From an uncultured virus (IMG/VR IMGVR_UViG_3300010148_000009) (taxonomy: Duplodnaviria > Heunggongvirae > Uroviricota > Caudoviricetes): a DNA stretch of 64,000 nucleotides. The notes beneath the pieces are model-generated. The model saw only the letters and a list, made by a program, of their open reading frames with translations. It was not told the DNA's origin and searched no databases. Made by a program: the position numbers and the translations under genes. The DNA is taken from IMG/VR virus record IMGVR_UViG_3300010148_000009; one strand, written 5' to 3'. Below are positions 13,155 to 63,602 of this stretch, piece by piece. Position 1 is the first letter of the stretch. Each line of letters starts with the position of its first letter.

Positions 13155-15602
13155 TTATTGACAACTTTCGCAGGATTCTCCATTTTTCATCGCTTCAATA
13201 CTGCAAGCACTTGGCTCTTTGTTTTCAGATGATGTAGACTTCTCTACTTTACTGGCAGCCCTATTCCTTAGGTAATACGTAGTTTTGAGACCAGCTTCCC
13301 AACAAGCCATATAGATATCATTTAGGTATTTTAGGGATGTGCTTTTATTGTATAAATTAAAGCTAATTGCTTGATCTACCCATTTTTGGCGAGCAGCAGT
13401 AGATTCAATTAATTTAAACATATCTCTATCAAAAGCAGTCTTGTACTTTTCTTTTAGATCGTCTGGAATATTTCCATTAGCTAAAGATAAGTCTCCATCA
13501 ATGCTTTTTACAAAAGATGCAATTTCAGCGTTCCAGAGCCCTCTATCTTTCATGTCTTTAACGAAATGAGGGTTAGTTATGTAGAAGTTTCCACTTTTGT
13601 TTTCATAGACGAAAAGTACTGAGAAGTTAGGTTCTATGCTTTGTTCTACACCATTAATATATCCGATTGTGGCGGTTGGAGCTATAGCCATAACATTGGA
13701 GTTTCTCATTCCGTGCTCACCAACATGTGTTCTTACCTTAACCCAATCCTTAAGGGTTTGACCTTTACCAGTTAATGGTTTACCTGTAACTGATTCTTCG
13801 GGAACTTCTTGTTTGCCTTTGTAGACCATTAAGTTGTTATAAGAATCAATTGGGAAAACTCCTTGACTCCAAAGTGAACCTTTGTAAGTTTCATAAGAAC
13901 CTCTCTCCGCAGCTAATTTAGAGCTTGCGTGGATTGCGTTCATTGAATAAAACTCAAAAAGTTTATCATTGAACTTCACAGCTTCATCACTATCAATATT
14001 TATATTTTTAATATGAAGGATGTCGTGAATACCCATCATGCCTAAACCAATGGGTCTATTTTTTAAGTTAGAGTTTTCAGCCTCTTTGGTTGGGTAAAAG
14101 TTGATGTCAATAACATTGTCAAGCATTCTTATTGCTGTGTGTATGCTTGACTCTAGTAGGTTGTAGTCTAGATCTCCATCATCTATATGATTAACTAAAT
14201 TAATCGAACCAAGGTTGCAAACAGCAGTTTCTCCAATTTCTGTTTTTTCTCCACTTTGGTATTTAGAGGCTTTTGTGTGAAGGGTAATTTCGGTACAAAG
14301 ATTGGAGCTATGGACAACACCTTCGTGCTGATTTGTATAACGAATATTGCAAGGATCTTTGAAAGTATTCCAAGGGTGAGAAGTCTCGAATAAAACTTTC
14401 AACATCTTTTTCCAAAGTTCTTTGGCTGGCATTTTACGCCAGTTATCTATATGACCATTTTCAGCAAGATCAATTAGCGAATTATAAGCGTAGTCAAATT
14501 CTTTACCAAAAAGATCATGCAACTCTGCATCTTTGGGGTCAAAGAAATACCAGTCTTGCTCGTTTTGTACTCGACGCATAAATTCGTCGGGTATCCAAGA
14601 TGCAGTGTTCATGTCATGGCAGCGAAGCCTGTCGTCACCAGTATTTTTTCTAAGGTTTAGAAATTCTTCGTAATCTAAGTGCCAAGGTTCTAGATATGCG
14701 CAGCCAGCACCTGGGCGTTTGCCACCTTGATTAACAGCTATAAGAAGATCATTGTAAATTTTTAACCAAGGAATTAAACCGCTTGAAATTCCATTTGTTC
14801 CTACAATGTGAGAACCTGTTGATCTAAATGGCGTAACGTCTAGCCCTAAACCTCCAGCAAATTTAGATTTTCTAGCTTCTTGCCAAGCACCATCAAATAT
14901 ACCATCAATACTATCGTCGAAGGTGTTAAGATAGCAAGAGCTAAGTTGTGAGTGGGTCGTACCACTGTTAAACATAGTTGGTGTGGATGGCGTATAAAGC
15001 ATATTGCTAATCAAATTATAAAATTCAATAGCTTTTTTATCTTTATCTTTTTCGTTAATTGCTAGGCCCATAGCAACTCTCATCCAGAAGCACTGGGGAG
15101 CTTCCATACATTTATCGTCAATTCTAAGAAAGTATCTGTCAGTAAGAATTTGCATACCTAAATATTTAAATTTTAAATCCCTACGGATCTTAATGGCTTC
15201 TGATAGTTTAACCAAATCGAAATCTAAAAGCCTTTTGTCTAGCCTGTCAGCTTTAACTAGCTTTTTTATGTTTTGTATAAATGATTTCCTGTATTGAAGT
15301 TTAAAAGTATCTGAATCAACGCCCTCTTTGAAAACTTCTTTATAAAGACAGTTTAATAAGATTCTTGCGGCTACTAGTGAGTAGTTTGGCTCTTTTTCAA
15401 TCTTCTCTCTAGAAGATAGGATCAATGCTTTATCTATATCTGACGTTAAGATTTTATCGTAAAGTTGAAGTTGAGCGTCAAGAACGACTTCGCTTGCTGA
15501 AACATTTTCTATGTCATCACATGCTCTTTGGACGCTGGCGTTAATCTTATCTACTACAAAATCTTGCAATCTTCCGTTTCTTTTCTTTACTTTTATGTCC
15601 AT
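13155..15602 (-). CDS. nrdA: Class Ia ribonucleotide reductase alpha subunit with N-terminal ATP cone
   Basis: VKKRNG ATP cone; PSTPTMFN; LSSC; SSNLCTEI; AIAPTA; LKTTYY; C-terminal CESC. Confidence 0.95.
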   Translation of the reverse strand: MDIKVKKRNGRLQDFVVDKINASVQRACDDIENVSASEVVLDAQLQLYDKILTSDIDKALILSSREKIEKEPNYSLVAARILLNCLYKEVFKEGVDSDTFKLQYRKSFIQNIKKLVKADRLDKRLLDFDLVKLSEAIKIRRDLKFKYLGMQILTDRYFLRIDDKCMEAPQCFWMRVAMGLAINEKDKDKKAIEFYNLISNMLYTPSTPTMFNSGTTHSQLSSCYLNTFDDSIDGIFDGAWQEARKSKFAGGLGLDVTPFRSTGSHIVGTNGISSGLIPWLKIYNDLLIAVNQGGKRPGAGCAYLEPWHLDYEEFLNLRKNTGDDRLRCHDMNTASWIPDEFMRRVQNEQDWYFFDPKDAELHDLFGKEFDYAYNSLIDLAENGHIDNWRKMPAKELWKKMLKVLFETSHPWNTFKDPCNIRYTNQHEGVVHSSNLCTEITLHTKASKYQSGEKTEIGETAVCNLGSINLVNHIDDGDLDYNLLESSIHTAIRMLDNVIDINFYPTKEAENSNLKNRPIGLGMMGIHDILHIKNINIDSDEAVKFNDKLFEFYSMNAIHASSKLAAERGSYETYKGSLWSQGVFPIDSYNNLMVYKGKQEVPEESVTGKPLTGKGQTLKDWVKVRTHVGEHGMRNSNVMAIAPTATIGYINGVEQSIEPNFSVLFVYENKSGNFYITNPHFVKDMKDRGLWNAEIASFVKSIDGDLSLANGNIPDDLKEKYKTAFDRDMFKLIESTAARQKWVDQAISFNLYNKSTSLKYLNDIYMACWEAGLKTTYYLRNRAASKVEKSTSSENKEPSACSIEAMKNGESCESCQ

Positions 15603-56060: not shown

Positions 56061-57099
56061 CGTCTTTAGAGATCCCCAAAACTCTTGCCTTCCAGACATC
56101 CATGTTTTCTAGCCTGTCAGCTTCTTCCGTTATTAATAATTTTTGTTTTTCTGCCATTTCAACCATACGCTTTCTATCAGTTTCGTTTTGAAAGAGTTTT
56201 ACTAAAGATAGTATAGATGCATTATTTCTATGTTGATTTTTAATACGTTCTTTTCTATCTCCATTTAAACGCGAAATTAAAGCTTCCTGACGTTTTTCAC
56301 ATTGATTGTATTCTTCACTTTTTGTTTTAAGTAGTTCTGCAAGCCTAACAGTCATATCTTGTTGATCTTCACACTCTTCGAACATTCTATTTAATTTGTC
56401 AATAGCTTTACTAATATTCTTTAAATGAATATAATCCATACAAACATTAATGTATAAATTTAATTCATCACTTGTTAAGTCTGGTTTATTCCATGTAGAT
56501 CTTATATATTCAGCTTCAAACAATTCTCTATCATCTAAACTATTATAAGTATTAATAGCTTGTACGAATCTAGGTGCAGATAAAAATTTTATTGTGCTTT
56601 CTATGTTATCTATGTCTTGTCTTGATAATTCTTTTTCATTTAATTCTTCTTGACAGTAATTATTAATTTTTTTAATTGCTCTAGATGCTGACCTTGGAGG
56701 GAAGTATTTAGCATTCATTGCATTCTCATCTGGATGCAATAATCTTTCATCGATGTTTTCTATAAATTTAGCAACTTCTATTACTTCTTTACTTAAATTT
56801 GTTACATTTATGTCAGGAAAGAGAATTTTTGATATTTCATAAGCAGACATGTCTTCTTTAGCATATTGAATAATAAACTGTTGTTGCTCTTCAGTAAATT
56901 CAATTTCTTCTCTTTTTTCTTTTTTTGTTGTGCTATATTGTAAATCATTAGAAACTAAGTACTGCCTTACAGCTCTACCCTCTTTAGTTCTGCCGTCAAG
57001 AGAATCGTCATCAAATGTTCTCCTTGTTAGCTCAATCAAATCAGAAATAATATTATAGTTATTTCTAATAAATTCTTTTTGTTCTTCAGTTAAGTTCAT
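56050..57099 (-). CDS. Hypothetical helical protein (terminase small subunit candidate)
   Basis: Two LTEEQ-type HTH-like starts plus a coiled coil; upstream of terL. Confidence 0.5.
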   Translation of the reverse strand: MNLTEEQKEFIRNNYNIISDLIELTRRTFDDDSLDGRTKEGRAVRQYLVSNDLQYSTTKKEKREEIEFTEEQQQFIIQYAKEDMSAYEISKILFPDINVTNLSKEVIEVAKFIENIDERLLHPDENAMNAKYFPPRSASRAIKKINNYCQEELNEKELSRQDIDNIESTIKFLSAPRFVQAINTYNSLDDRELFEAEYIRSTWNKPDLTSDELNLYINVCMDYIHLKNISKAIDKLNRMFEECEDQQDMTVRLAELLKTKSEEYNQCEKRQEALISRLNGDRKERIKNQHRNNASILSLVKLFQNETDRKRMVEMAEKQKLLITEEADRLENMDVWKARVLGISKDDVV

Positions 57100-57815
57100 A
57101 TTACATCATTATCTCTAATTAATTTTTTAGCCAACTCTTTAAACATCTTCTCAAAATTTTTAATTTGTTTGTAACCCGCTTTCCTTCCCTTTTCATTACT
57201 TTTATAACCAAGCTTTTCTGCAGCTTTATTAATGTCTAAATTTTTTATATAAATCATTTCGTATATGATATAATGTTTTTCACTTAAATTTTCTCTCATT
57301 AAAATATTAAGTTTTTGATTAGCTTTATCAATGTCAAATTGTTTTTCTTGTTTAATAAAATTAGAACTGTCATCTATATTGACGGCCATATTTATATTAA
57401 ATGAAGATTTCTTAGTTTTCTCCCATTTAGCATAAAGCGGACAAGTACAGTCTTGCTTGCCACTTTTAGTCCAAGAACAATAGTTTTCATCGTTAATGTT
57501 ATCAATCGCGCCAGAAACATTAAAAGGACACTGATTGCACGGCCTAATAAAATTACTATAGTAATTTCTTAGAATGTTTTTGATTTGATTGGATATTATT
57601 CTGTTGAGCCAAGGTTCAAGCGGTCTTTTTTGATCCCATAAATGCCACTTGTTATATATATGAGTTTTTATTATTTGTGAGACATCATCCCAGGAAATCC
57701 ATGATATCGCTTTTAAAAACCACTTACCTCTTCTTTTCTCTACTTGCTCATCTATAACATCATATCTATCTTCAAATCTTATTTTTCTAGGCCTACCTCT
57801 TTTCCGCTTCTCCAT
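57096..57815 (-). CDS. ECF-sigma-like factor with Cys-rich insertion and N-terminal AT-hook
   Basis: DDVSQ..WDQKRPLEPWLNRIISNQIKN (region 2-like); CNQC..C..C.CP; LSEKHYIIYEM..AAEKLG (region 4-like); likely start MEKRKRGRP at 57815. Confidence 0.65.
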   Translation of the reverse strand: MEKRKRGRPRKIRFEDRYDVIDEQVEKRRGKWFLKAISWISWDDVSQIIKTHIYNKWHLWDQKRPLEPWLNRIISNQIKNILRNYYSNFIRPCNQCPFNVSGAIDNINDENYCSWTKSGKQDCTCPLYAKWEKTKKSSFNINMAVNIDDSSNFIKQEKQFDIDKANQKLNILMRENLSEKHYIIYEMIYIKNLDINKAAEKLGYKSNEKGRKAGYKQIKNFEKMFKELAKKLIRDNDVI

Positions 57816-58089
57816 CGTCTTCAAGATCGAATAGCTCTTCCACCTTGAACGACTTCTTTTCAAATGGAGAAACTTCATATTGCAAACTTGCAATGTTGGG
57901 TACATAGTCAATATCGCTCTCATCCTCAGCAAGAACCTCTTGCCTTTTTGTTTGAGCTATTGAATTTTTAACTACTCGCTTTGCAACCACGGCTGAACCC
58001 ATAGGCTTTCCGCAGTTACTACAAAATTTAGGAACAGAACCGATGTACTCGTTTTTACTCCCGCAACTTTTACAATATTTTTGTGGCAT
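57793..58089 (-). CDS. Zinc-ribbon protein
   Basis: YCKSCG..KFCSNCG. Confidence 0.75.
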   Translation of the reverse strand: MPQKYCKSCGSKNEYIGSVPKFCSNCGKPMGSAVVAKRVVKNSIAQTKRQEVLAEDESDIDYVPNIASLQYEVSPFEKKSFKVEELFDLEDDGEAEKR

Positions 58090-59303: not shown

Positions 59304-59554
59304 ATGTATATATTATTACAGTTATTTTTACACATGTTCGGATTTTTTTTTAAAAAACGTATAATTCCCAGTAATCACACGGCCAGATTTTGAGAAAAAC
59401 CACCCCCGCGCGATCTCGGCAGTAATCTGCCGTGAAAAAATTCAAAAAAAGGGGGTCATTAGTCTAGCTACTGCAGGCATTAGCTACGCTACAAGCGTCC
59501 TAATTCGAAGTTTTTTTTCTTGTGGTTTGGCTGTTTATATGCTAAGTTATACTT

Positions 59555-59793: not shown

Positions 59794-60009
59794 ATGAAAA
59801 TTGAAAAAGGATTAAAAGTCGGAGGAATTTATCACTCCTCGCAAAACAATAAAGCCGTGAGACTCGTCTCACTTGATCGCATCAAGGGCGGTCTTCGGGT
59901 TGCTACTATCAAGCACCACGGGCAAGATCACTTGTTCCAATCGGAAGTTTACCTTTCCGATCTTAGCAAGGCAACTGCCGAGCAAGTCGCTTCTTACTTC
60001 AGCCGTTAA
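59794..60009 (+). CDS. Small early protein
   Basis: TTGCAA-17-TATAGT promoter at 59756..59784. Confidence 0.75.
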   Translation: MKIEKGLKVGGIYHSSQNNKAVRLVSLDRIKGGLRVATIKHHGQDHLFQSEVYLSDLSKATAEQVASYFSR

Positions 60010-60030
60010 CCTAAAACAAAAGGAAATAAT

Positions 60031-60198: not shown

Positions 60199-60504
60199 AT
60201 GAGAAAAGTTACAGAACAAATCAAGCAAGCTTTCGAGCAAGGCACATCTAAGAAAGTCGGCAACACCGAGACAGACGGGCAAACCGTTTGGCTTCACGGG
60301 AACGCCATTGTCAAGCGTGATCTTGATGGGCTAGTCCGTTGGAGTTTGGCGGGTTGGAATACTCCAACGACACGCGAACGCGTCAACGGCATTGCCAACG
60401 CGGGCGTTCACCAAGTCAACTTCGAGCCTGTCCTAAACGGTCAAGTGATTGACTCATTCGATTGGTTCGCCTCCGATAGAGTTGCACAATTCAACTCTAT
60501 ATGA
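60199..60504 (+). CDS. Hypothetical phage protein
   Basis: 101 aa; VWLHGNAI..GWNTPTTRERVNG. Confidence 0.8.
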   Translation: MRKVTEQIKQAFEQGTSKKVGNTETDGQTVWLHGNAIVKRDLDGLVRWSLAGWNTPTTRERVNGIANAGVHQVNFEPVLNGQVIDSFDWFASDRVAQFNSI

Positions 60505-60553: not shown

Positions 60554-60624
60554 TAAGTCACTGATAGTCAGGCACTTAGGCGGCGGGCGGCCCGCGACGT
60601 AAGTCTTTGGTAACCAACGACTTA
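60554..60624. repeat. Twin-palindrome element, copy 1
   Basis: TAAGTCACTGATAGTCAGGCACTTA, 21-bp GC linker, TAAGTCTTTGGTAACCAACGACTTA. Confidence 0.95.
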
Positions 60625-60730
60625 CGAAACGCATGTACATATACCATGCCAATCTATGCAGTAGGATTGTGCAAAAAGATAGTTGAAAGTTTTCCTTGAC
60701 TTTTCGGGTTTTCTCTGCTATGTTATAGGT

Positions 60731-60904
60731 ATGATTAAGAATAAAGATGTAGTAGTAGACCGACAAGGTCGAATTTTTCAAGTTGTCGATGCAGACTTTC
60801 GGACTGACCGACTAGGTAAGCAAATCCTTTGCCGTTTGTATCGCTCGCAAAAGCGAGTTGCATTCATGCCTTGGCAAGTCAAGAAACATCCTTTTTTCTC
60901 TTGA
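60731..60904 (+). CDS. Small early protein (leaderless; start revised from 60683)
   Basis: TTGACT-17-TATGTT-6-ATG. Confidence 0.75.
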   Translation: MIKNKDVVVDRQGRIFQVVDADFRTDRLGKQILCRLYRSQKRVAFMPWQVKKHPFFS

Positions 60905-61304: not shown

Positions 61305-61490
61305 ATGAATAAATCAGAAATGCTTAGAGAAATCTCCATCCTCCACGAAACGCTTAAGGACTGCGTCCTTACCATCGCCGACAAGGTTGCGATTCGCAAC
61401 GAGATCGGCGACCTGCAGGACAGGGTCGCTCTCCTGGACTTCCAAGAGTCTGAGGACATCGACTTCGGTCACCACTCCGAGTGGGAGTGA
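61305..61490 (+). CDS. Small acidic helical early protein (leaderless)
   Basis: TTGACT-17-TACATT-6-ATG. Confidence 0.75.
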   Translation: MNKSEMLREISILHETLKDCVLTIADKVAIRNEIGDLQDRVALLDFQESEDIDFGHHSEWE

Positions 61491-61492
61491 CC

Positions 61493-61563
61493 TAAGTTCT
61501 TGATAGTCAGGCACTTAGGGCGGCGGCGGCCCGCGACGCAAGTGCTTGATAATCAACGACTTA
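61493..61563. repeat. Twin-palindrome element, copy 2
   Basis: TAAGTTCTTGATAGTCAGGCACTTA, 21 bp, CAAGTGCTTGATAATCAACGACTTA. Confidence 0.95.
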
Positions 61564-61575
61564 CGAAAGGCTCGC

Positions 61576-61604
61576 ATTATAACATATAAGCCAAGAAATG
61601 TCAA
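61576..61604 (-). promoter_or_regulatory. Consensus antisense sigma70 promoter facing repeat copy 2
   Basis: TTGACA-17-TATAAT with extended -10 TG. Confidence 0.85.
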
Positions 61605-61707
61605 GAAAAAAAACGCAGATTCGCAAACTTTTTTTCAGTCGTTTTGTGCAATAAAATAGTTGAAAGTTTTTCTTGCAATTTTGCATTTCATGTGTTACTT
61701 TATAGGT

Positions 61708-61935
61708 ATGAATCAGTTAAAAGAAATTAAAAAAGAATTGAACCGAGATCTCGATCTTGGTCTTGCTCTATCCAAAGCCGAGGGAAACCTCAACTTTCTC
61801 GCAGGAGAATCTTCCAAGCAAGATTGGCAATCTTCGATTACTCAAGGTATGGCAATCCTTGACGCTCTCGAAGCCGTCCAAGTTGCTCGCAAGGCTTGGC
61901 AAGAAATCATCCGAGAAAAAAGAGCCGAAAGGTAA
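61708..61935 (+). CDS. Small helical early protein (leaderless; start revised from 61660)
   Basis: TTGCAA-17-TACTTT-6-ATG. Confidence 0.75.
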   Translation: MNQLKEIKKELNRDLDLGLALSKAEGNLNFLAGESSKQDWQSSITQGMAILDALEAVQVARKAWQEIIREKRAER

Positions 61936-61979
61936 TCTTTTCCCTTGCAATTTAACAAAAATTAGTTTAGATTTATAAT

Positions 61980-62126
61980 ATGAAAACAAAAGAACAACTA
62001 CAAAATGATCTTGCTTGGTGGCAAGACAAACTTAACCGATCACGCAAGGAATCGACTCGCTCGATTCGTGCCGTTCATGTGCAATACTTGCAGAGTGAAA
62101 TTAAAAAGCTAGAGGATAAATCCTAA
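61980..62126 (+). CDS. Small helical early protein, 48 aa (leaderless; not in ORF track)
   Basis: TTGCAA-17-TAGATT-6-ATG; MKTKEQLQNDLAWWQDKLNRS... Confidence 0.75.
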   Translation: MKTKEQLQNDLAWWQDKLNRSRKESTRSIRAVHVQYLQSEIKKLEDKS

Positions 62127-62189
62127 TGTTTTTTCTTATAATGTTCGCTCTCTCCTGCATCCTTTACTACCAACAAAGCTAAAAAAATT

Positions 62190-62393
62190 ATGTCATCATT
62201 CCAAATAAAATCACGAATCAAAGAAGTAAACGCAAGGCTTGCAAAGGCTACCGACTCGCAAGAGATCGCCCAACTAGAGAAGGATCTCCAAGATTGGAAG
62301 AACATTTTGCACGATGTCCAAATGCAAGAGTTTGAAGATCAAGTCGGCTTTAAGTCTATGGAACAAAACGCAGGCGTTTGGGACGAACGCTAA
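62190..62393 (+). CDS. Small helical early protein
   Basis: 67-aa coiled-coil ORF. Confidence 0.7.
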   Translation: MSSFQIKSRIKEVNARLAKATDSQEIAQLEKDLQDWKNILHDVQMQEFEDQVGFKSMEQNAGVWDER

Positions 62394-62421
62394 AAAAAAT
62401 AAAAAAAAGCTTGACAGTAAA

Positions 62422-62502
62422 ATGTTTGACCTAGTACAAATTCTAATACCCTTTTCAGCTATACTAATACCTTGCCTAATAGTTTGGATTTGGCCCGCAT
62501 AA
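62422..62502 (+). CDS. Possible 26-aa hydrophobic peptide (MFDLVQILIPFSAILIPCLIVWIWPA)
   Basis: Single TM-length peptide whose TAA is the first 3 nt of repeat copy 3. Confidence 0.45.
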   Translation: MFDLVQILIPFSAILIPCLIVWIWPA

Positions 62503-62570
62503 GTCACTGATAATCAGGCACTTAGGGCGGCGGCGGCCCGCGACGCAAGTGCTTGATAAGCAACGGCTTA
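62500..62570. repeat. Twin-palindrome element, copy 3
   Basis: TAAGTCACTGATAATCAGGCACTTA, 21 bp, CAAGTGCTTGATAAGCAACGGCTTA. Confidence 0.95.
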
Positions 62571-62582
62571 TGAAACGCTCGC

Positions 62583-62611
62583 ATTATAACATAAAAGGCA
62601 AAAGTTGTCAA
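62583..62611 (-). promoter_or_regulatory. Consensus antisense sigma70 promoter facing repeat copy 3
   Basis: TTGACA-17-TATAAT with extended -10 TG. Confidence 0.85.
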
Positions 62612-62701
62612 GGAAAAAATGCGACTCCATTAAAGTTTTTTTGTGAATAACTTTAGAAGATTTTTCTTGCAATTACTAGGTTTTACCTTTAGATTTATAA
62701 T

Positions 62702-62890
62702 ATGCAATCAAAAGAACTAGCAATCAAAACTCTCGAATCTCGCATCGAGGGAATCCGTAACGCCATTGCAAAGATGCGTAAAGACGCAACTTCTGCAACC
62801 CGTGCCAATATCGAAATGGCAATCGAGATGCTTGCTCTCCCTGAGCTTGCCAAAGTGCAAGCCGAGCTTGCTGAAATCGAAAACTCCTAA
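62702..62890 (+). CDS. Small helical early protein (leaderless)
   Basis: TTGCAA-17-TAGATT-6-ATG. Confidence 0.75.
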   Translation: MQSKELAIKTLESRIEGIRNAIAKMRKDATSATRANIEMAIEMLALPELAKVQAELAEIENS

Positions 62891-62894
62891 CACC

Positions 62895-63236
62895 ATGTTT
62901 CAAGCTCAACCATACACCCAAGACATACACGACCAATGCAAGGCATTGGATGATGTCAAGGCAGGTGTTACCTGCAAGAGTAATATCCCATCAGATCCTG
63001 CTTGGAAGGGTAACGCCAAGCGGTGGCAAGCCCATTGCTCAGGCAATCTCTACGCTCTGACCATACAGAATAGGTCAATGGATCACACCTTTACTGTACA
63101 TCAGTACGGCAAGAATGTTTTTCAAGCAGGTCTACGCTACTATCGAGGCTTTAATGTTAAGCATTCAGGCGGGGCATCTTGGACTTGGCAATGCACTAAG
63201 ATAGTCAACGCTCAACTGCTCAAGAATAACGCTTGA
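62895..63236 (+). CDS. Hypothetical early protein (start revised from 62766)
   Basis: ATG 4 nt after the previous stop; MFQAQPYTQD. Confidence 0.7.
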   Translation: MFQAQPYTQDIHDQCKALDDVKAGVTCKSNIPSDPAWKGNAKRWQAHCSGNLYALTIQNRSMDHTFTVHQYGKNVFQAGLRYYRGFNVKHSGGASWTWQCTKIVNAQLLKNNA

Positions 63237-63242
63237 CAAGCA

Positions 63243-63313
63243 TAAGTTCCTGATAGTCAGGCACTTAGGTGGCGGGCGGCCCGCGACGCAAGTGCTTGGT
63301 AACCAACAACTTA
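63243..63313. repeat. Twin-palindrome element, copy 4
   Basis: TAAGTTCCTGATAGTCAGGCACTTA, 21 bp, CAAGTGCTTGGTAACCAACAACTTA. Confidence 0.95.
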
Positions 63314-63326
63314 TAAAACGCTTTAC

Positions 63327-63354
63327 ATTATATCATAATTTTTAATTTTGTCAA
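63327..63354 (-). promoter_or_regulatory. Antisense sigma70 promoter facing repeat copy 4
   Basis: TTGACA-16-TATAAT with extended -10 TG. Confidence 0.8.
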
Positions 63355-63485
63355 GTATAATATAAGGTGTTTAGTATTTGTTCTATTTGTTAGTATCTCT
63401 TATCGCTAGTATTAGATAAATTTAAAAGTTGTATTTAGTGAATTTTTTTCTCGCTATTGTTCGGAAAGTGCTTTAGTCTTTATAT

Positions 63486-63602
63486 ATGAAAACAAAAAAG
63501 ATCAAAGTAAGAATCCCAATTCTTTTCACCAAGGCTCGCCCAATGAAGGACAAGTCTAGATATTCACGCAGGGTCAAGCATAAGCAAGCCCTTTCATACT
63601 AA
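63486..63602 (+). CDS. 38-aa basic peptide (leaderless; not in ORF track)
   Basis: TCGCTA-17-TAGTCT-6-ATG; MKTKKIKVRIPILFTKARPMKDKSRYSRRVKHKQALSY. Confidence 0.65.
   Translation: MKTKKIKVRIPILFTKARPMKDKSRYSRRVKHKQALSY

Follow-up and report, generated by a model that had tools for sequence, protein, structure and literature searches.

Why should a phage carry consensus sigma70 promoters that point into repeated palindromes and have no credible gene behind them? The question is raised by the early region of an uncultured phage, of which the window analysed here comprises the first 64,000 of the 72,795 bases on record, the record (G000) being ~61% complete according to CheckV and the genomes of relatives reaching ~200 kb. 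The terminase, portal and PhoH genes lie up to 59303, on the minus strand, and from 59.5 to 72.7 kb there follow small genes in an early-type region of two convergent arms. This region contains 15 promoter-gene units, seven on the plus and eight on the minus strand, in which the ATG stands only 5-7 nt past the -10 box, so that their messages are likely leaderless, and ten double-palindrome elements are spread through it. Bordering the first arm, at 59395-59465, is a block made up of an AAAACC-C-tract, ~25 nt, AAAATTCAAAAA and a G-tract, which is conserved in close relatives, occurs once per genome in G001 and is a candidate packaging or terminus site; in L015 and L016 an insert of ~3 kb, which begins with GC-richer, possibly structured, non-coding sequence, lies between PhoH and this block. 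Beyond the window, another perfect sigma70 promoter, the fourth (72699 of G000, minus strand; 8430-8639 in L357), heads a non-coding stretch of ~500 nt with an Rfam manA RNA (79 bits), an RNA that occurs in 5/5 relatives searched and in most of them at the early region's far edge. A tRNA-like segment of 116 nt at ~66.8-66.9 kb of G000 (2898-3013 in L357, minus strand; Rfam 55.7 bits) contains an apparent insertion, and ARAGORN called no tRNA there. RNA reads of one run gave a single 250-nt contig, on 59803-60026, and none on the promoters discussed below, an outcome that speaks neither for nor against their use.

The first four elements, referred to here as copies 1 to 4, lie at 60554-60624, 61493-61563, 62500-62570 and 63243-63313. 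Copy 1 consists of a 25-bp palindrome, a 21-bp GC core and a second 25-bp palindrome, and each palindrome is built of two inverted half-sites that share their central base. The core is often centred on GGCNGCC, and its length, taken over all elements, clusters at 16-17, 21-23, 25 and 27 nt; in L102, at ~2877-2990, two double elements stand in direct tandem, giving four palindromes in a row. Copies 2 and 4 begin 2 nt and 6 nt past the stops of plus-strand ORFs of 61 aa (61305-61490) and 113 aa (62895-63236), each head-on to a candidate inward transcript. An exact-repeat scan of viral contigs gave 0 matches, blastn against cultured phages gave only promoter-like matches of 36-46 nt, and in genome contigs the double palindrome was found only twice, both times on one 4.7-kb MAG contig that is possibly misbinned phage. 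The elements show no polarity genome-wide (7 flipped and 5 the same, 12 compared).

Beside copies 2, 3 and 4 the minus strand carries TTGACA-17-TG-T-TATAAT at 61576-61604 and at 62583-62611, both with the discriminator GCGAGC, and TTGACA-16-TG-A-TATAAT at 63327-63354, with GTAAAG. As a preliminary description of this locus had noticed, all three match the consensus at 12/12 positions and have an extended -10 TG, and their spacers fall within the 16-18 nt of the sigma70 class. They are the only exact consensus matches in the window (shuffles held 0.11 on average, and three were reached in 0/100) and surpass its gene promoters, the best plus-strand match in the window being 11/12. Measured from the ends of the second palindromes (61563, 62570 and 63313), the -10 boxes lie 12, 12 and 13 nt away, in keeping with the 12-13 nt given earlier. 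It had also been said that no credible ORF lies behind these promoters, and we agree: there is no ATG at +7, and minus-strand ORFs start inside the palindromes. The argument that perfect boxes around diverged spacers betray selection stands in so far as relatives keep the boxes, with the small correction that copies 2 and 3 have 12/17 spacer bases alike and are related, so that the three promoters are not fully independent. Upstream of copies 4 and 3 the plus strand holds a lone TTGACA with no -10 (63233-63238 and 62412-62417), and a peak of TTGAC is seen again in relatives, 10 nt ahead of the palindrome (13 clusters).

Relatives were checked for loss of the boxes beside homologous repeats, and the slot proved to be conserved, though not at every element. 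Searches with PhoH and the palindrome yielded 199 loci, which together with 14 fetched regions make up a set obtained with no promoter in the query and with the phage's own genome left out. Counted within 120 nt of 478 flank clusters of this set, 11/14 inward matches to TTGAC-N17-19-TA[TG]A keep a distance of 38-42 nt to the palindrome (p=4e-12) and 24/69 matches to TGGCAY begin exactly 27 nt from it (p=6e-32), where, as with all p-values given here, the figures are optimistic, the clusters sharing ancestry and not being independent lineages. Scans with promoter and palindrome together gave 15 viral and at least 126 metagenome loci, with at least 92 distinct matches in at least 62 clusters. 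Among the matches listed, 38 of 62 clusters adjoin a full double element, two of them being the window phage's own copies in a metagenome contig, and the 24 others, likely unrelated, were set aside. The -35 (TTGAC) stands 39-42 nt from the palindrome in 38/38 of these double-element clusters, with 35-43 allowed, and among the same listed matches the extended TG is found in 31/38 of them as against 6/24 of those set aside. Judged by sequence, the inward slot occurs in dozens of uncultured phage lineages.

At copy 1 the slot is differently occupied. Where the other copies hold a sigma70 promoter, copy 1 has no perfect one and carries on the minus strand, at 60635-60652, TTGGCATG-N4-ATGTAC, a sigma54-type -24/-12 box whose TGGCA starts 27 nt from the palindrome and whose -12 is T. 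Just upstream of it (60657-60673, minus strand) is a TGCA-N9-TGCA palindrome, recognised by eye in a number of relatives, which we take to resemble an NtrC-type site but which lies very close to the -24 box. Sigma54-type boxes at 27 nt occur in 31/602 flank clusters, and 0 share a flank with a sigma70 box; TGGCAY at -24 is accompanied in register by G at -13 in 29/31, and C at -12 is present in 0/31 (T in 20, A in 10, G in 1). Both box types are found behind the same gene family, as in the family of 60199-60504, with seven sigma54 and two sigma70 boxes. Low-level transcription without an activator correlates in E. coli with the loss of -12C, a base that repressive sites retain (PMC4551910), so that all box types here may fire weakly.

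The sigma70 boxes of relatives are themselves unusual. Among the matches listed, -7T is present in 12/38 inward clusters (8 TATAAT, 4 TATATT) and missing in 26/38, where the box is mostly TATAG(A/C/G), while it is retained in 167/171 gene promoters at these loci and in 64/72 matched phage controls without the palindrome (difference from the controls p=1e-9). The inward boxes that do keep -7T have a discriminator GC content of 0.69 (n=12), as against 0.30 in the controls (n=64, p=2e-6) and 0.20 in the loci's own gene promoters, and a GC-rich discriminator makes open complexes unstable, as happens at rRNA promoters. In Rhodobacter, loss of -7T makes opening dependent on CarD and supercoiling (PMC12976309, PMC7703639); those promoters likewise combine a good -35 with a -10 that lacks its last T, but there the loss is genome-wide, whereas here only the inward boxes show it and the gene promoters of the same phages keep -7T. 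Most inward boxes look built for good binding and poor opening. This reading is opposed by one tested promoter in which an extended -10 made up for the missing -7T (PMC7703639), since 31/38 inward boxes have such an extension, and the window's three copies, being full consensus, may simply be strong. The earlier characterisation of these as strong promoters is nevertheless doubtful, as the slot across the family holds boxes predicted to open poorly, and the three box designs likely converge on good binding with modest or conditional firing, from a predicted start 0-6 nt before the palindrome.

A phage sigma factor was considered as the reader of the inward boxes and rejected, the late genes showing a different motif, GTGTA, and the candidate ORF having no family match. 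This ORF (57096-57932), presumably sigma-like to judge by eye, matches nothing in Pfam or PHROG. The GTGTA motif is likely a late promoter; it is common to the regions upstream of the minus-strand ORFs starting at 15602, 19138, 38851, 41059, 49172, 50511, 52560 and 59303.

Back to back with the inward boxes stand plus-strand promoters of leaderless genes: at 60696-60733 behind the sigma54-type box of copy 1, at 61673-61710 for copy 2 (TTGCAA-17-TACTTT-6-ATG; gap from -35 to -35 of 68 nt) and at 62667-62704 for copy 3 (TTGCAA-17-TAGATT-6-ATG; 55 nt). For copy 4 a probable weak leaderless promoter, found by eye and missed by the promoter pattern, lies at 63451-63488 (TCGCTA-17-TAGTCT-6-ATG), before a 38-codon ORF and with a gap of 96 nt. 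Over 22 clusters the gaps between inward and gene -35 fall near 24, 35, 43, 55, 68, 78 and 97, a periodicity of ~11 bp (R 0.64-0.68, p 0.002-0.004); the sigma54-type boxes show no phase to the gene promoter (12 clusters, p ~0.5). Where there is no inward box, the palindrome stands 16-18, 25-31, 36-40 or 47-50 nt from the gene -35, with a period of 10.6 bp (79 clusters, p ~0.002), a pattern that fits a protein working from a single side of the helix. Against a partner role in cis, recombination between phased A-tracts could be the source of the phase. Compared with internal ones, gene promoters that back onto an inward box are no weaker (TTGAC in 11/22 vs 46/85), and the idea that inward boxes go with weak partner promoters was rejected on these counts.

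The placement of the inward boxes is also biased between the arms. In PhoH-oriented records 23/23 inward boxes face PhoH, and they are found at 15/25 first-arm and 0/33 second-arm elements, while 61 further elements were not assignable to an arm and one fitted both; the 10/25 first-arm elements with no recognised box speak against the cis partner. In a wider, partly overlapping set, in which 43 of 55 loci have elements, the corresponding figures are 22/72 and 4/143, and 10/24 sigma54-type and 1/9 sigma70 boxes face the other way, so that the polarity is strong and not absolute.

The palindromes themselves suggest what might meet the polymerase there. Within one mismatch, 802/1004 half-sites agree with the IHF consensus WATCARNNNNTTR (as given in PMC3897727), of which TTR and CA are largely fixed by the search pattern; at the WATCAR positions left free in the search, R is A or G in 100% of the 1004 half-sites and W is A or T in 88%. 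The palindromes fit the IHF consensus, and binding by IHF is assumed. A search for PF00216 (IHF/HU) genes yielded none in G000 (61% complete) or in four relatives that are 90-100% complete, and an IHF-type binder would thus be the host's. The terminase has only distant matches, of ~25%, to Bacillus and Lactococcus phages, and in the host search the names of RNR homologues yielded no taxon. Against this part of the best reading, the palindromes could instead bind a phage protein.

As the conserved features are all positional, they argue for action in cis. The explanation that we favour, tentatively and with slightly less than even confidence, is that the backward box is a cis-acting conditional partner promoter, which contends with an IHF-type protein and influences the gene promoter phased to it; the fixed palindrome distance, the exchange with sigma54-type boxes, the arm restriction, the helical phase and the covering of the predicted start region by an IHF-consensus palindrome all speak for it. 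Polymerase would bind the inward box well, through its perfect -35 and extended -10, and would open it only under favourable conditions, opening being made poor by the GC-rich discriminator in the window copies and by the missing -7T or sigma54 dependence in relatives. Bound or firing, the box would vie with a host protein of the IHF type that sits on the neighbouring palindrome, and would influence the gene promoter behind, to which it is phased, so as to throttle the gene cassettes of the first arm by host state; any antisense RNA would arise incidentally and have no fixed end. For the net effect on the genes we lean towards damping. IHF, sigma54 and CarD of the host enter this explanation as assumptions.

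A convergent promoter resembling lambda pO/OOP, which would damp the 3' end of the upstream cassette by collision or mRNA pairing, is a possible though rather unlikely account, and such interference can coexist with a conditional partner promoter. It is in line with the opposite-strand ORFs that end within 150 nt beyond the element in 27/38 clusters among the matches listed, copies 2 and 4 being cases in point, with the lowering of pR transcription by lambda pO through interference (PMC3985674), and with the weak firing that the effect of -12C loss allows for all box types (PMC4551910). The expected product, however, has neither a defined end nor a specific target: a terminator-like signal follows within 300 nt of the inward box in only 6/82, so that a terminator of its own, as in OOP, is not seen, the window offers only 5-pair hairpins, and the 83 upstream genes belong to 49 families rather than to one target. 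That the inward box replaces a terminator was rejected, there being no trade-off (ordinary terminators are equally common before elements with and without an inward box, 10/65 vs 9/56), and the phase to the promoter behind and the one-arm bias are left unexplained.

We consider it less probable again that the backward promoters are interchangeable sensors of host physiology, by which the first DNA to enter would set early output with RNA polymerase as the regulator. The sensors would be of three types, an rRNA-like GC-discriminator, a -7T-less promoter dependent on supercoiling or CarD, or a sigma54 box, each seated on a palindrome bent by IHF and in phase with the gene promoter, and they would read host growth, topology or nitrogen state.

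Only a little more doubtful is a function at the genome end, in which a backward polymerase near the terminus would pull DNA in or balance torsion on the injected linear DNA. The preliminary description had raised such an aid to DNA entry, and the uniform facing of PhoH and the arm bias in both sets fit it, as does the conserved C-tract/G-tract block that borders the first arm; divergent transcription, moreover, can stimulate a partner via supercoiling (PMC5175336). Topological coupling in that system is independent of phase, whereas the boxes here are phased (PMC5175336). The reversed sigma54-type boxes of the wider set do not fit, poorly opening promoters would be poor motors, and the terminus was not located from the contig ends.

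Transcription-primed (R-loop) replication origins, several per genome and firing toward the structural genes, appear improbable. Their direction agrees with the long minus-strand module, and promoter-primed origins occur in T4, T7 and c2. Neither a G-rich transcript nor an AT-rich unwinding element was found, however: the core is not rich in G on its inward strand (G exceeds C in 34 and C exceeds G in 46 of 85), the downstream DNA is GC-rich, and the earlier proposal of primed origins finds no support in the sequence. Copy number and type also vary between close relatives, and the idea of OOP as a primer was abandoned in lambda (PMC3985674).

Marginally less probable than such origins is that the boxes are relics of cassette shuffling, functionless inverted copies of gene promoters beside recombination joints. 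They do resemble gene promoters (74% over 35 nt with 59510-59544), and close relatives differ slot by slot (L479 vs G000). A fixed distance of 39-42 nt, an intact -35 and extended -10 around diverged spacers, the systematic change of -7T or discriminator and the sigma54-type alternative, on the other hand, do not amount to decay.

As for the RNA, that of the elements has no Rfam match, pairing covariation is absent (0.475 vs 0.503 and 0.412 vs 0.471 for shuffled partners at free positions), and neither strand has a G-U bias (G-U 253 vs A-C 278 in 151 clusters). A multicopy structured small RNA of ~80 nt, with the palindromes as hairpins and a function in trans, is hence hardly credible: the predicted transcripts do surpass shuffled sequences in folding (z -1.6 to -4.4), but any palindrome folds and the opposite strand does so too (z -3.6 to -5.6), while pairing stays below that of shuffled partners, G-U pairs are about as frequent as A-C, and there is neither an Rfam match nor a terminator. 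Lacking covariation, a conserved terminator, a fixed target and a G-rich transcript, the small-RNA family or primer first proposed for these promoters is not supported.

Divergent and convergent promoters are already known, and what is apparently new is the interchangeable sigma70/sigma54 slot. A repeated slot that takes a sigma70 or a sigma54 box in fixed geometry and is tuned against opening was not found in the open-access literature, supplements aside, and PMC10383478 and PMC4611503 added nothing on the backward-promoter design. The slot provides a natural set of variants with which to study the control that a promoter without a gene exerts on its neighbours, in a system that lends itself to tests in E. 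coli with no need for the phage.

Three known systems come close. Lambda pO/OOP is likewise a gene-less sigma70 promoter in the early region, directed against early transcription, and there too promoter activity rather than the RNA matters for the cis effect, the RNA having once been proposed as a primer; it differs in being a single copy with its own terminator and a specific target, cII (PMC3985674). The promoters described here, in contrast, are repeated and target-independent and lack a transcript end; they keep a set place beside an IHF-type palindrome, and a sigma54-type box can stand in for them. The PeSL cassettes of T4-type phages are, like our elements, repeated intergenic units with sigma70 promoters between small variable genes, but their promoter points in the sense direction and is accompanied by a terminator stem-loop and a Shine-Dalgarno site (PMC2839356). 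Here, too, a repeated unit places a sense sigma70 promoter ahead of small variable genes, whereas there is no selection for a hairpin and the starts are leaderless; the genes would be leaderless, the repeat seems to act like a double-stranded binding site, and a backward promoter is added. The words 'antisense' and 'IHF' are absent from the main text of PMC2839356, whose supplement alignments could bear on reverse promoters. The terminator and single target of OOP and the stem-loop and Shine-Dalgarno site of PeSLs being missing, the locus is a member of neither class. The sigma54 Po and sigma70 Pr promoters of Pseudomonas dmp share with it the divergent arrangement, mixed sigma factors, IHF and control in cis, but both drive genes, IHF lies between them and their coupling is phase-independent (PMC5175336), whereas here one promoter is gene-less, the IHF-type sites lie downstream of the inward promoter and the sigma70 pairs are phased. 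By analogy, then, the backward promoter would work most like lambda pO and the dmp pair, set in a PeSL-like array.
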